DNA of 64,000 nt, taken from NCBI GenBank assembly GCA_000004695.1, contig CM000151.3:7232001-7296000 (forward strand), written 5' to 3'. The stretch comes from Dictyostelium discoideum. Its lineage: Eukaryota. The translations under genes were made by a program, and so were the position numbers. The stretch's first letter is position 1; the number at the start of each line of letters is the position of its first letter. This document shows, one piece after another, positions 5,333 to 49,450 of this stretch. The notes under the pieces are model-generated. The model did not search any database, was not told where the DNA came from, and worked only from the letters and a program-made list of their open reading frames with translations.

Positions 5333-5878
5333 AGAAAAATCTGGAGGATCCAGAATCAATTGGGGAATAGAAATTTTCAACAGACTAGACATTCCATTAA
5401 CAGCCAACGCCATAGCCATTATTTGCGAAAACATCTGGAGAAGAAGAAACAAGAAAATCCACGAAGGAATAACACTCAAAAACTTAAGAAAACAACTACT
5501 AGTACACGAACTAAAGAAAACTCAAACAGCAGCCTGGAAAAGAACAAAAAACAACATATACAAACTAATCAGACATGAAAAAAAAGCAACCAACAACGAA
5601 CAAATAAAAAAATTCAAAAACATCATCTCCCTACAACTCGAAAGATTTAGCAAACACTGGAACTCACCACTACACACAGTAGCACTACCATCAAACCTCA
5701 ACAAATATATTACGTCACTAAACACACTCTACACCCCCCAACTTTAAAAAAAAAAAAAAAAAAAAAAAACCATACAACCTTAAAAGGCACCTGTAATATC
5801 TAAAAATAAAATTAATAAAATGAGTCATATCTCAAGAAGAAGCAACTAAAAATTGCGTTATTCCATTCAAAAAAAATA
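5333..5878 (+). mobile_element. TRE5-like (tRNA-gene-targeted non-LTR) retroelement fragment, 5'-truncated or internally deleted, with an internal A26 tract. Flanked by a 16-bp direct repeat (TSD).
   Basis: There is an exact 16-bp direct repeat TATACCCTTTTATTTA at 5316-5331 and 5878-5893. The proximal insertion boundary lies 48 bp upstream of the mature tRNA-Ser 5' end. The interval is non-AT-rich and carries a 149-aa ORF (5298-5747) ending in an A26 tract (5745-5770). A 3'-terminal motif TATCTCRAGRAGAAGCA...ATTG(C/T)GTTAT is repeated at about 5826 and about 6141. Confidence 0.5.
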
Positions 5879-12136: not shown

Positions 12137-12795
12137 TCTTTTTTAAATTTTAAATTTTTAATTTTTTTTTTTTTTTTTTTTTTCCTAGATAAATAATAAT
12201 AATAAAAAAAAAAAAAAAAAAGGTGAAAATAAGAATTTTATGAAACTAAAAAAAATGAAACAAACCAAAACAAAAAATAAAAAAATAAAAAAAAAAAAGT
12301 GATTGGAAACTGACAAAAAAAAAAAAAAAACACAAAAAATAAAAAAAAATAAAAAAAAAATAATTTTTTAAAATTTAAAAAGCTTTTGAAGTTTCTTTGC
12401 TCAGTGTTCTTTTGTTTTAAATTTCCCATCATAAATATCTTCAAAAAATTTATTATTTTAAAAGAAAAAATAATATCTTGGTTTATTATTTTTTTTTAAT
12501 AATTTTTTTTTTTTTTTTTTTTTTTTTTTGGAATTATAATAATTTGTTGAAAAAATTTGCAAATTTTGTTTTTAATTTAACTTTGAAGTCCAAGCAAATA
12601 TTTGCTTTTAAAAAAAAACAAAAAATTATTAATAAAAGTAGTGTGGAATTGAAAACTTTTTCCTAATTATTTCATTCCACAAACAAATACAAAAACAAAT
12701 GATAAATAGGGATTTATTATTTTAATATTTGGTCAAACTTTTCTTTTTCTTTTTTTTTTTATAATTTTATTAATCGATTTTTTTTTTTTTTTGAT

Positions 12796-29736: not shown

Positions 29737-30533
29737 CTTTTTTTTTTTTTTTTAAACTATTAATATTTGAATACTTTAAAAGTTGTTTTTTGATTTTAAA
29801 TGTTAACTAAATTAAAAAAAAAAAAAAAATTTCTTTTAAATAATTAAAAAAATACAAATTGCTTTGAATTAATATTTTTTTTTTTTTTTTTTAATTTAGT
29901 TTTTTTATTATAAAAAAAAAAATTAAAATAAAATTTTAAAAAAATTATTATAAAAATGGTGAAAGGGGTATTTAATTTTATAATTATGACACCACACTCC
30001 CCCACTCACTTTTATATATATTTTTTATTTATAAATGTATATATCAAACAAAAGTAATTTTTTTTTTTTAATATTTCATTTTTAAAGGTAAATTTTTTTT
30101 TTTACATCTCACTTCATATAAATTTATTTTTTTCTATTTTTAAACTTTTTTTTTTTATTTTTTTTTTTTTTTATTTTTTATTTTTTTTCAAATTACAAAA
30201 AAAAACCAAATTCTTGAATATCTTTAATCTCGATCAAACCATTTAACATTTTTTATTTTTATTTTGTATTATTTTATATTATTTTTTTTTTTTCGTAAAA
30301 TGCAAATTTAATTTAATTTATTTTTTTTTCATTTCTCAACATTTCAAAAAAAAAAAAATCAATATAAAAAAAAAAAAAAAAATTAAAATCATTTTATTAA
30401 AATACCTTTTTAAATATCTTTACAATAATTATTATCTTTATAATAATTATTATATTTATCTAAACATTTCCAAATAATAAAAAATATAAAAATAAAATTA
30501 AAATTAAAATTAAAATTAAAAAAAAAAACAAAT

Positions 30534-33713: not shown

Positions 33714-34151
33714 TTATTGTTCTGGGAGACTTTTGTATTTAGTAACGTACTCCTGAAGTTCACACTTGGTTACGAATCTGTCATTATCTTTATCCAATTC
33801 ACTAAAGAAATTTTCAACAATCATAAGTGGAGCAATTGCATCTGGATTGTTTTTATTTACCCAATTGCATACTTCATCCCATGAGATCCTTCCATCCTTA
33901 TCAGTGTCATAGCCTTTCAAGAAGTTGTTACAGATGTTGTTAATTGCCTTTTGCAATTTCTTTGCAGCAACATCAGCCTTATGGCCATGAATCTCTTTTA
34001 TTGAAATAATTCCATCCTTATCCTTATCAAGAGAAATAAACATTGAAGAGGCAGCACGTAATGGATCTTTTGAACCGGTTTCCTTCAAACGTTTTACAGC
34101 TTCATCAAATGTAATATTACCATCACCATTTGAATCAAATTTTCTTAACAT
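33714..34151 (-). CDS. EF-hand calcium-binding protein (4 EF hands; Dictyostelium CBP-type), 145 aa.
   Basis: Four canonical 12-residue loops are present: DSNGDGNITFDE, DKDKDGIISIKE, DTDKDGRISWDE and DKDNDRFVTKCE. ATG was verified. Confidence 0.88.
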   Translation of the reverse strand: MLRKFDSNGDGNITFDEAVKRLKETGSKDPLRAASSMFISLDKDKDGIISIKEIHGHKADVAAKKLQKAINNICNNFLKGYDTDKDGRISWDEVCNWVNKNNPDAIAPLMIVENFFSELDKDNDRFVTKCELQEYVTKYKSLPEQ

Positions 34152-34439
34152 ATCCTCCTATGCACAGTTAGTTTTTGGAAAGAAAAAAAATAAAAAAAAT
34201 TATTAATATGGCATTTCTATTTTCTTTTTTTTTTTTTTTTTTTTTTTTTACATACTACATCTTTTGTAATTGCACAATCCATTTTTTAATTTTAATATTT
34301 TCTAACAATTTAATAACACAATAATGAAATAATTAATGAAAAAAAAATTGAAAATTACTCCCTTTAAATAGAAAAAATATTATTTTTATTTTTTTTTTTT
34401 ATTTTAATTATTTTTTTTTTTTTTATTATTATTATTAAT

Positions 34440-34628
34440 ATAATTATTATTTTTTTTTTTTTAAATTTTAATTTTTCATTTTTATTATTATTTTTATTAT
34501 TATTAAAATTTTTATTTTTTTTTAGGGGGTACCATCTTTTTTTTTAATACCCCCAATCACACATATTACAAAAATGGATATTGAATTCAACTGTTTTTTT
34601 TTTTTTAAATATTAATTTTTCATTTTTA

Positions 34629-34665
<37 letters not shown>

Positions 34666-34725
34666 AATTATTTTTTTTTTTAGGGGGGCACCCCTCTTTT
34701 TTTTTTTAGGATTGTATGTGTGAAG

Positions 34726-34761
<36 letters not shown>

Positions 34762-34830
34762 GTTGAATTCAATATCCATTTTTGTAATGTGTGTGATTGG
34801 GGGTATTAAAAAAATTTTAATAATAATACT
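34440..34830. repeat. Composite palindromic element. It has a 48-bp perfect inverted repeat flanking a ~170-bp core, plus about 90-bp direct repeats ending in AGGGGG(T/GC)ACC.
   Basis: AATACCCCCAATCACACATATTACAAAAATGGATATTGAATTCAACTG at 34540-34587 is the exact reverse complement of 34759-34806. The unit TAATTTTTCATTTTTAT(C)ATTATT...ATTAAAATT..TTTAGGGGG(G)(T/C)ACC occurs at about 34450-34535 and about 34610-34700. Confidence 0.55.
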
Positions 34831-35533
34831 AAATAATTTCATTTTTATTATATAATTTTTTTTTTATATATTTATTTTTATTATTTTTTTTTTATTATTT
34901 TTTTTTTATTATTTTTTTTTTTATATAGAATTTTTTTATAATTCAATCTTTTAGAATTATGTCATACTATTAAGATAGGTTTATTTAATTTTTTTAATTA
35001 ATTGGGAATTATTTGTAAAAAATATATTTAAACTTTCAATATAAACAAATTGTCAAGTTTAAATATATTTTTTGCTTAGTACTTTCCAATTTATTTAAAA
35101 TAATTAAAATAAATATATTTAAATAGTATTACAATAATTAACTCTTATTTTTAATTTCTAAGAAATTGAGATTATATTTATCTCTTTTACTTTTTTATTT
35201 TTTTTTATTTATGTTTGTTTTATCTTGAGTTTTAGTTATAATTAAAAAAGTTGGAATATAAAAAATAAAATATTTAAAATAATTTTTAATAAAAAAAAAT
35301 AATAAAAAAATAATAAAAAATAATAATCAAATAAACCAACTTTAATAGCACAACCATAAAAATAAAATCACAAAAAAAATATCTAAAAATTTCGAGCTTG
35401 GGTTGTCATTTTTATTTTTGTCAATTGTCACAAAATTTATTTTTTTAATTTTTTTTTTTTTTAATAAAAAAAAAAATTGATTATAGAAAAAAAAAAAAAA
35501 TAATGGTTCAAAATTTTAATTTCACTCACAAAA

Positions 35534-37288
35534 ATGAAACTTAGTATTGTTACTTTTATTGTAACAGTAGTTGTGTTATCAGTGATCTATATTTATAATA
35601 GTTCAACATTATTAGAATCTAGAGTATTGAAGGATTATGTTGAAAAGTATGATCCAAATTATAAATGGACATTAAATGCAACTTATAACACTAATGTCTC
35701 AACAATTTACATATTAGAATTAAGTATGTTTTTTTTGGATAATAATAATTGTTTAGAAAAATAAAAAAAATAAAAAAAAAAAAAAAAAAAAAAAAAAAAG
35801 TGAAAATATTAATATATATTGATAACATATTATTAAATAATTTTTTTTTATTTTTTAAATAATTATGTTAATTAGCATCACAAAAATGGGATATGGGAAA
35901 TTCAAGTAGTCCACTTTGGAAACATTGGTTAACAGTTTGTATACCAAATAATGCAACAGAAAATTTAGAAACTGGTTTATTACTTATTGATGGAGGTTCA
36001 ACAGTGAATTGGGCAGTACCAAGTGTTAATGGTTGGAGTTCTTTTGGTCAACAATTATGTAAAACATCAAATGAAATTACAGCAACAGTTCAACAAGTAC
36101 CAAATGAACCATTGATTTTTGATAATAATGGTATTAAAAGATCAGAGGATGGTATTGTTGCACTCACATGGCGAAAATATATTGATACAAAGGATTCAAA
36201 TTGGGTTAGTTTACTTCCACAAACTAAATCTGCAATTAAAGCAATGGATGCAGTTCAAGAATTTGGTAAAGAAATTGGTAAATTTTCAATTAAAAATTTT
36301 GTTGTAACTGGTGCTTCAAAGCGTGGGTATGTATTTAAAATTATTTTTTTATTTTTTTTAATTTTATTAATTTTATTAATTTATTATTTTTTAAATTGTT
36401 ATTATTATTATTTTTATTATTATTTATTTCAAAAGATGGACAACATGGGGTACAGCAATGTCATCAGATAAACGTGTTGTTGGTATTGCACCAATGGTTA
36501 TACCAATTTTAAATGTTGCAGAAAATATTGGATCACAAATGCAAGATCTTGGTGAATGGTCATTTGAATTATATGATTATATTCAAAATGGTATCACAAA
36601 TTTCCTTTATACAAAATATTTTGATAATCTTAGAAAGATCATTGACCCAATTAATTATATTAATACATTGGAACCAATTGCAAAATATGTATTAAATGCA
36701 GCAGATGATGAATTCTTTGCAGTTGATAGTCCAAAATTCTTTTATAGTAAATTAAAAGGTGAGACTAGATTAAACACCTATCCAAACACTAATCATAATG
36801 GTATTAAGAAACAAGCAGTTGCCAATGATATTGTAAACTTTTTCAAATTGGTCGCATTTGGTATTGAACGTCCAGAGATTGAATGGTCAATTGAATACTC
36901 TCAAGATAAAAACTTTGGTACAATTAAAATGAAAGTTTTAAAAGGTGTACCAACTAAAATCTCCTTATGGTTTTCAACAACAATTTCAACAACAATGAGA
37001 GATTTCCGTATGTATACATGTGAAGATGCTTCATGTTATCAAAATCTCGATTGGCAATCCATTGATATTGAAATCTCACCAGAAAACAATTATTTCTATA
37101 CAATGGAAAAACCAGCTGCTGGTTGGACTGGTTTCTTTTATCAAGTTGAATTTGAAACTGGTTCATATTACTCAACTGAAGTATCAATTGTACCAGATAT
37201 TTTACCTTTCCCAAAATGTCCAATGTCAGTTTGTGCTTCTGGTATTCCAGCTTATAAAAATAAAACTTTAGAAATAGAAAATAATTAA
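35534..37288 (+). CDS. AprA-like secreted protein (PhoPQ-activated pathogenicity-related family; autocrine proliferation repressor A-like). Exons approx 35534-35723, 35876-36326 and 36436-37288, about 497 aa.
   Basis: It has a signal peptide. The sequence YVEKYDPNYKWTLNATY...WKHWLTVCIPNNATE...FVVTGASKRG|GWTTWGTAMSSDKRVVGIAPMVIPILN... is characteristic of this family. Donors are gtatgt, and phases 1 and 2 were verified. A paralog lies at 49651-51492 on the opposite strand. Confidence 0.83.
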
Positions 37289-45049: not shown

Positions 45050-45480
45050 TTGTTGGAATTTCACTATTTGCTTGTTGTAATTTTTAAAGTAATAATATTT
45101 TTTTTTTCCCAAAATTATTATTTTTTAAAAGTTGAATATAAAAAAGAAGAAATTAAGAAATTTTAAAATCACTTTTTTTTGCCTTAAAAAAGCAATAAAG
45201 TCAAAAAAATCTTCTTGAAGCGTAATAGCTTTAATCAAGTGTAGTATCTGTTCTAGAACGCTTAAAATCGTTCTGCTATCTAAGTGATAGCTTTCGAATT
45301 TAATTTTATTTTTTATTCGAGGTTTTTAGATGTTATTATTATAATATCGGCTTGCCTTTATTCATTACATCTAAAGTTGTATTCCCTCTGTATCGCACCA
45401 TTTCAGAGTCAATAAAAGAGTACTACCTCTACCTATTTAATTTTAATGAAAAAAAAAAAAAAAAATTAGTTTGCATAGAA
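45050..45480. repeat. Non-AT-rich, non-coding block duplicated with the X/Y gene unit (copy 1).
   Basis: ..CTTGAAGCGTAATAGCTTTAATCAAGTGTAGTATCTGTTCTAGAACGCTTAAAATCGTTCTGCTATCTAAGTGATAGCTTTCGAA...TCGGCTTGCCTTTATTCATTACATCTAAAGTTGTATTCCCTCTGTATCGCACCATTTCAGAGTC.. It is about 97% identical to 49020-49450 and contains the 10-bp palindrome GTTCTAGAAC. Confidence 0.7.
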
Positions 45481-49019: not shown

Positions 49020-49450
49020 AAAACAATTTTTATTGTTGAAATTTCATTGCTTGTTTGTTGTAATTTCTAAAGTAATAATATTTTTGTTTTTCCCAAATTA
49101 TTATTTTTTAAAAGTTGAATATAAAAAAGAAGAAATTAAGAAATTTTAAAATCACTTTTTTTTGCCTTAAAAAAGCAATAAAGTCAAAAAAAATCTTCTT
49201 GAAGCGTAATAGCTTTAATCAAGTGTAGTATCTGTTCTAGAACGCTTAAAATCGTTCTGCTATCTAAGTGGTAGCTTTCGAATTTAATTTTATTTTTTAT
49301 TCGAGGTTTTTAGATGTTATTATAATAATATAGGCTTGCCTTTATTCATTACATCTTAAGTTGTATTCGCTCTGTATCGCACCATTTCAGAGTCAATAAA
49401 AGAGTACTACCTCTCCCTATTTAATTTTAATGAAAAAAAAATTTTAGTTT
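49020..49450. repeat. Non-coding conserved block, copy 2 of 45050-45480.
   Basis: It is near-identical to copy 1, with only a few substitutions over about 400 bp. Confidence 0.7.

Follow-up and report, generated by a model that had tools for sequence, protein, structure and literature searches.

A recent inverted duplication in the cbpA promoter region of Dictyostelium discoideum AX4, probably formed by local rearrangement

Is the long inverted repeat upstream of a developmentally regulated gene a mobile element, a gene for a structured RNA, or a rearrangement of the promoter DNA in which it lies? The question is raised by a pair of 48-bp arms in a 64-kb stretch of Dictyostelium discoideum DNA (hereafter the window; G+C content, 20.5%), which we infer to be part of chromosome 2 of strain AX4. 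An initial annotation of this site placed a MITE- or foldback-type transposon in its headline and named a structured non-coding RNA gene and a recombination product as further options. The last of these proves to be essentially right: the repeat arose by a recent duplication with inversion, and all of the lineage-specific DNA is of local origin. It is likely to represent a young, AX4-lineage rearrangement of the cbpA upstream region that includes a conserved, putatively regulatory box, and not a mobile element or an RNA gene.

Anatomy and reality of the repeat

The open reading frame at 33714-34151 (minus strand) specifies an EF-hand protein and belongs to cbpA (CBP1, P42529; 33714-34282, minus strand), which consists of a 27-nt exon 1 (34256-34282) and exon 2 (33714-34157) separated by a single intron. 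Its spliced 156-aa product is an exact match to XP_642849, the calcium-binding protein A of D. discoideum AX4. CBP1 has been reported to act during aggregation (PMC6830349), and a literature search on the cbpA promoter returned nothing useful. The right-hand neighbour, whose ATG is at 35534 on the plus strand, carries a PhoPQ_related domain and is AprA-like. Because the EF-hand reading frame is cbpA and the gene to its right is PhoPQ-related, the inverted repeat is located in the 1.25-kb promoter region shared by this divergent pair, and its original placement between an EF-hand and an AprA-like gene is correct. A putative cbpA TATA box (TATTTAAA, as read on the minus strand) occupies 34363-34370, within a 12-mer common to all four of the other lineages compared below, and relative to it the left arm spans 176-223 bp upstream and the right arm 390-437 bp upstream.

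From left to right, the structure comprises a direct-repeat unit (unit A), the left arm, a second copy of the unit (unit B), an inner GT-rich box, a run of 26 A residues followed by a G, the right arm, and a run of seven A residues. The left arm occupies 34546-34593 and the right arm 34760-34807, positions that are 6 nt and 1 nt away from those at which they were first placed (34540-34587 and 34759-34806). The 48-bp inverted repeat thus exists, but it is not perfect as had been claimed: the arms are complementary at 47 of 48 positions, the lone mismatch being T at 34564 against G at 34789. The arm-to-arm span is about 260 bp, the loop is 166 nt, and complementarity reaches 66/68 when the flanking T and A runs are included. 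In the AX4 reference, a G at 34759 intervenes between the A run and the right arm (the run and this G together spanning 34733-34759); this base is missing from a second, near-identical assembly and is either a reference error or a strain difference, and without it the inverted repeat continues unbroken into the A/T runs.

That such a repeat cannot be a product of chance was asserted from the outset, and the numbers agree. When 20- and 21-mers of the arm were compared allowing up to three mismatches, the expected number of matches was 0.00 (100 shuffles) against two observed, and the probability of a perfect reverse complement of the arm at a given site is about 1e-28. No other inverted repeat in the window has an exact seed that reaches 14 nt with four or more G/C, except for a 14-16-bp palindrome at 12592.

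The direct repeat is equally real. Unit A (34450-34545, plus strand) consists of T13, AAATTTTAATTTTTCATTTTT..ATTAAAATT.., the G-box-like sequence AGGGGGTACCATC (34524-34536) and T9, and it aligns to unit B (34594-34707, plus strand), which consists of T13, AAATATTAATTTTTCATTTTT..(ATT)n..ATTAAAATT.., the near-palindrome AGGGGGGCACCCCTC (34682-34696) and T11. Over the roughly 95 bp that are shared (34455-34545 against 34599-34705), 85 of 108 alignment columns are identical, with gaps that mostly reflect a difference in (ATT)n length, and the alignment score of 125 compares with a maximum of 80 in 94 control windows of low G+C content. The reported occurrence of a unit of about 90 bp both outside the left arm and inside the element is therefore sound, as is that of a near-palindromic G/C core between the arms, which corresponds to AGGGGGGCACCCCTC and has its diverged copy in the AGGGGGTACCATC of unit A. 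Runs of five G or five C residues number 10 in the whole window, and four of these fall within this 280-bp stretch.

Cloning and assembly are notoriously error-prone at inverted repeats in very AT-rich DNA, and the extra G at 34759 in the reference might itself arouse the suspicion that this is a false palindrome in a Sanger-era sequence. However, a second assembly (L006, GCA_054883475.1) has the same structure: it reproduces both arms, both units and both G-rich boxes, and within the structure, homopolymer lengths and that G are its sole differences from the reference. Over 6.6 kb, L006 is 99.65% identical to the reference, with coding sequences that are 100% identical to those of AX4; because it differs by three mismatches and four gaps, it represents separate sequence data, and the shared architecture argues that the repeat is not an assembly artefact. 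Unless the L006 assembly was reference-guided, the chance of an artefact is vanishingly small. In that L006 has approximately the same genotype as AX4, it supports the assembly and is uninformative on the spread of the allele.

A single arm in related lineages

Syntenic loci were reached through CbpA homologues in two divergent lineages of D. discoideum (L001 and L007), in two of D. cf. discoideum (L008 and L002), in D. dimigraforme (L003) and in D. citrinum (L004 and L005). Based on p-distances in the GST gene and cbpA, the tree is (((AX4,(L001,L007)),L008),L002),L003. The two genomes that are labelled D. discoideum (L001, GCA_054859385.1; L007, GCA_054859355.1) differ from AX4 by 3-6% in coding DNA (GST, cbpA and PhoPQ), and the CbpA protein of L001 differs from that of AX4 by 9%; we consider such differences unusually high within one species and suggestive of cryptic lineages. 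The gene content of the locus also varies: the cbpA orthologue is tandemly duplicated in L002 (10001-11821; D. cf. discoideum) and in both D. citrinum loci (L004, 10001-11832; L005, 8798-10579) and is single in AX4, L001, L007 and L008, and a second GST-like gene takes the place of the PhoPQ-related gene as upstream neighbour in D. citrinum and D. dimigraforme.

Each of L001, L007, L008 and L002 possesses a single arm, in the orientation of the right arm and with the same A7 flank. In the orientation of the window, these four lineages have one AT-rich unit (TTTCATTTTTATT..ATTAAAATTATT) and one or two ATACTGTGGTGAAnTTA..TGTGATTAnAGTCATTTT boxes, and then a box (GAGGATTGCAYGGAGTGAAAG) that is the orthologue of the inner box of AX4, followed by an A run and the arm. 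The AT-rich part of unit B is orthologous to the single unit of L001 and L007, and the inner GT-rich element (AGGATTGTATGTGTGAAGTTAATTT, 34708-34732, plus strand) to GAGGATTGCAYGGAGTGAAAGTG in L001, L007 and L008. Because the right arm and the sequence between the arms have orthologues in the relatives, both are resident promoter DNA. The same comparison delimits what is specific to AX4 to a piece of 144 bp, which consists of the 96-bp unit again, in direct orientation, and the 48-bp arm, inverted. The right arm is thus the ancestral, orthologous copy and the left arm its AX4-lineage-specific inverted copy, which is present in L006 and missing from the other four lineages.

The similarity of the arms to one another confirms that the repeat is recent, as had been proposed. 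Identity between the two arms is 98% (47/48), compared with 85-88% between the arm and its nearest orthologue, in L001, and with 77% for L007, 67% for L008 and 62% for L002. Both arms also have AX4-specific changes in common within their inner half (TGAATTCAATATCC against TGAATATTC), and at the one position where they differ, the left arm (at 34564) keeps the ancestral A and the right arm now has G. We also considered an ancestral inverted repeat with subsequent loss in the relatives, and rejected it, since this would call for at least two losses in place of one gain, and the arms are 98% identical.

AX4 has lost the two ACTGTGGTGAA boxes that its relatives keep and has G-rich boxes in their place. 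Two copies of the ATACTGTGGTGAAnTTA..TGTGATTAnAGTCATTTT box are found in L001 (9610-9765, minus strand), as in L007 and L002, with one in L008 and none in the AX4 promoter, and boxes related to these, TTAACTTCACCACA, occur in the cbp promoters of D. citrinum and D. dimigraforme. The inner box of AX4, which in gene orientation reads TTAACTTCACACATA, resembles the TTAACTTCACCACACATAT boxes of the D. citrinum cbp promoters. An origin of this inner box as a chimera left by deletion within the lost ACTGTGGTGAA boxes was considered and rejected, in that only two 1-nt indels distinguish it from its orthologue in L007.

Transposition, hairpin RNA and template switching

Several features of the site could be taken to indicate that the 48-bp arms are the terminal inverted repeats of a non-autonomous DNA transposon of the MITE or foldback type, inserted upstream of cbpA. 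The inverted repeat is long and near-perfect (47/48) and measures about 260 bp from end to end; a TA abuts each outer end, as in Stowaway-type elements; and D. discoideum has small DNA transposons, including Thug, DDT and Tdd (PMC5633606). However, insertion of such an element should leave an empty site in lineages that lack it, and there is no precise empty site in L001, L007, L008 or L002, all of which retain the GT-rich internal box and a single arm with its A7 flank. Moreover, a unit within the supposed element also occurs outside it. The terminal TA is uninformative as a target-site duplication because it is part of the palindrome itself, and beyond the T and A runs the flanks differ (TACCATC against TTTTAAT). 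Neither a search with arm halves, allowing up to three mismatches, nor blastn-short yielded a further copy elsewhere in the window, and none was found in eight related loci totalling about 120 kb (five searched with blastn-short and three read directly). An exact-pattern scan for the arm in metagenome contigs gave 0 matches, in a collection that is unlikely to include Dictyostelium DNA and is hence uninformative. The headline of the initial annotation is therefore not supported, and a transposon at this site is highly improbable.

A second possibility is that the arms form a hairpin RNA gene, i.e., the precursor of a young miRNA or siRNA or some other structured non-coding RNA, in which case transcription across both arms would yield an RNA with a stem of about 68 bp, a possible substrate for Dicer. 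Inverted duplication is a recognised route to new hairpin RNA genes. A minus-strand transcript of 34520-34815 is predicted to fold at -100 kcal/mol (z-score, -13.8), and the locus has T runs followed by G; the miRNA genes of D. discoideum are mostly intergenic, with start sites that follow T runs (PMC6161686). But the strong fold score is an automatic consequence of the duplication, the loop is as long as 166 nt, and none of the related lineages has the hairpin, so that a role as RNA would have to be an innovation of AX4 and its lineage.

Searches for an RNA gene likewise gave no support to this alternative. Rfam produced no match at E<=10 in 34100-35600 and none near the site at the gathering score, and a tRNA search found nothing near the site. 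The DUSE motif, [AT]CCCA[CT]AA, is found upstream of Dictyostelium snRNA and class I RNA genes; it has no exact match in 34100-35600, and the ACCCCCAAT of the arm does not fit it. Fragments of the arm had no match in the one supplementary file consulted of the 2018 survey of D. discoideum miRNAs (PMC6161686), and a full-text literature search with such fragments retrieved only one unrelated mouse paper. A hairpin RNA gene is thus improbable, and even more so the specific version in which the new hairpin would be transcribed from the start-like T-run/G signals and processed by DrnB into small RNAs directed against the cbpA promoter. If true, a regulatory RNA locus would have been observed in the reference strain of the laboratory just as it came into being.

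At the gathering score, the only Rfam matches in the whole window are two U2 genes and one tRNA. The U2 snRNA genes (45209-45423 and 49193-49407, plus strand; 76 and 73 bits) are about 4 kb apart, and each has TCCCAAA(A) roughly 100 nt upstream. Their 120-nt upstream sequences are near-identical, which indicates that the pair arose by tandem duplication.

There remains the account that we favor, a local rearrangement, for which the most economical mechanism would be two template switches during replication. In the ancestral order, which the four relatives still display, the AT-rich unit is nearest to the gene and is followed by the GT-rich boxes, an A run, a single arm and an A7 run; to this the AX4 lineage has added 144 bp, namely a second direct 96-bp unit and an inverted 48-bp arm. 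In the first switch, a nascent strand ending in the T run past the unit would have annealed to the A7 run beyond the arm (34808-34814, plus strand; kept in L001 and L007), after which the arm would have been copied backwards into the long A run. In the second switch, proposed to have occurred at this run (34733-34759, whose complement is a T run), the strand would have returned to the T13 in front of the unit and copied the unit again.

Both junctions of the new piece fall within T/A homopolymers: at the first, the T9 before the left arm matches the complement of the A7 beyond the right arm, and at the second, the T13 after the left arm matches the complement of the A26 run as well as the T13 before the unit. 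These junctions, together with the observed order of segments, fit template switching. Because homopolymers are ubiquitous in this genome, however, the junctions are weak evidence, and the mechanism is a fit that could not be proven from sequence alone. Two separate events, or gene conversion, could yield the same product. The G-rich boxes of units A and B differ by two substitutions and two indels in 15 nt, compared with one difference in 48 nt between the arms, and this greater divergence of the boxes sits a little uneasily with one simultaneous event, even if the numbers are low.

Conserved boxes and likeness to known systems

Apart from its origin, the rearrangement may bear on the regulation of cbpA, in that it has copied a conserved sequence. 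The outer 30 nt of the arm (CATTTTTGTAAT-TGTGTGATTGGGGGTATT; CATTTTTGTAATGTGTGTGATTGGGGGTATT in the right arm) are identical at 29-30 of 30 positions in L001 and recognisable out to L002, whereas the AT-rich DNA on either side does not align and the arm's inner half varies. The core of this box, TTTTTGTAAT.TGTGTG(TG)ATTGGGGGT, has counterparts that align in L001, L007, L008 and, in part, L002; its conservation extends to lineages whose coding DNA diverges by 6-10%. The GBF consensus, (T/G)G(T/G)G(T/G)G(T/G) as quoted in PMC2257962, is matched twice in the right arm (TGTGTGT at 34788 and TGGGGGT at 34798) and once in the left (TGGGGGT at 34549, minus strand), from which the perfect TGTGTGT 7-mer is missing. 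The enrichment is modest: three matches in 300 bp, against 58 in the window, place this site in the top 3% of 300-bp windows. More distant species have boxes of a similar kind. In gene orientation, the D. citrinum cbp promoters contain AATAACCCCATGTAAATCAC..TTAACTTCACCACACATAT, which resemble the arm end and the inner box, and the D. dimigraforme promoter contains an arm-like GGGGGTA box (GTAATATTGGGGGTAACCATTTTTTTTT) in the opposite orientation.

Because the box is conserved and matches the G-box/GBF consensus, the outer 30 nt of the arm (TTTTTGTAAT-TGTGTGATTGGGGGTATT) are probably an upstream regulatory element of cbpA. The conserved GT/CA-rich box would then be a putative upstream element of this developmentally regulated gene that works in either orientation; AX4 has two copies of it after the inverted duplication and has lost two other GT-rich boxes. 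More generally, the region may be viewed as an array of GT/CA-rich cbpA upstream elements undergoing turnover.

It might be argued instead that the rearrangement is neutral and has no regulatory role, such that the conservation of the box reflects short divergence times combined with a chance likeness to a loose GT-rich consensus. The GBF consensus is indeed degenerate (58 matches in 64 kb), conservation of the arm's inner half is weak, and AX4 does without two neighbouring boxes that other lineages conserve. Furthermore, footprinting with exact 12-mers does not single out the arm, and other intergenic blocks are more strictly conserved. Exact 12-mers are too strict for the arm because its (TG)n tract varies in length, and we therefore judged its conservation by alignment. 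Neutrality is at odds with the near-identity of the outer 30 nt in L001 and their recognisability out to L002 amid AT-rich DNA that cannot be aligned, with the rarity of G5 runs (10 in the 64-kb window), and with the recurrence of related CA-rich boxes in the cbp promoters of more distant species. We consider a neutral rearrangement unlikely, though a serious alternative.

The promoter region and the rest of the window contain other candidate elements. A perfect 19-bp inverted repeat (AAAAAATATATTTAAACTT / AAGTTTAAATATATTTTTT) around the loop TCAATATAAACAAATTGTC is present at 35021-35079. It falls in a stretch of about 170 bp (34922-35090) whose conservation is high in L001, L007 and L008 and partial in L002; the loop core, AACAAATTGYCAAGTT, is conserved in all four, and the divergent cbpA / PhoPQ-related pair may share this repeat as a regulatory element. 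A G-box-like sequence (GAGTGGGGGAGTGTGGTGTC) near an HD-domain gene is conserved between AX4 (29999-30003) and L001 (14094-14098), and a further one, GGGGGGTGTAGAGTGTG, is found at position 5734 of the window.

As a promoter rearrangement, the AX4 structure is ordinary, small and of a known type, and it has little reach beyond the cbpA locus. Its value lies in providing, in a model organism's reference strain, a clean, datable case of small-scale turnover of promoter elements, in which GT-rich boxes have been duplicated, inverted and lost. The cbpA promoter of AX4 is structurally unlike those of related D. discoideum lineages, which is relevant to those who use this promoter and to comparisons of expression among strains, and a false transposon call has been removed.

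Among known systems, the closest parallel to the local rearrangement is with duplication-inversions of the FoSTeS/MMBIR type. As in those, a nearby sequence is copied in inverted orientation next to a direct duplicate of an adjoining segment, the breakpoints coincide with short homologies (here T/A runs, which as homopolymers are weak evidence on their own), and the state is derived with respect to outgroups; the AX4 case differs in its very small scale (144 bp) and in that its microhomologies are homopolymers. With MITEs and foldback elements, including Thug of D. discoideum, the structure shares its small size, its long near-perfect inverted repeats and its potential to form a hairpin, but it differs in having no empty site, resident promoter DNA inside, no other copies in the DNA searched, and an uninformative target-site duplication.

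The remaining two likenesses concern what the new structure might do. In the plant model, young miRNA genes originate by inverted duplication, and in AX4 a recent inverted duplication has likewise produced a long foldback, although what was duplicated is promoter DNA and not a target gene. With the G-box and CA-rich elements that GBF binds in developmental promoters of Dictyostelium, the structure has several features in common: the arm is GT/CA-rich, has two half-sites (TGTGTGT and TGGGGGT), is conserved among close relatives and lies a few hundred base pairs upstream of a developmentally regulated gene, and comparable CA-rich boxes, one of them reversed, are found upstream of distant cbp genes. 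The differences are that the left arm is without TGTGTGT and that the enrichment of consensus matches is modest.
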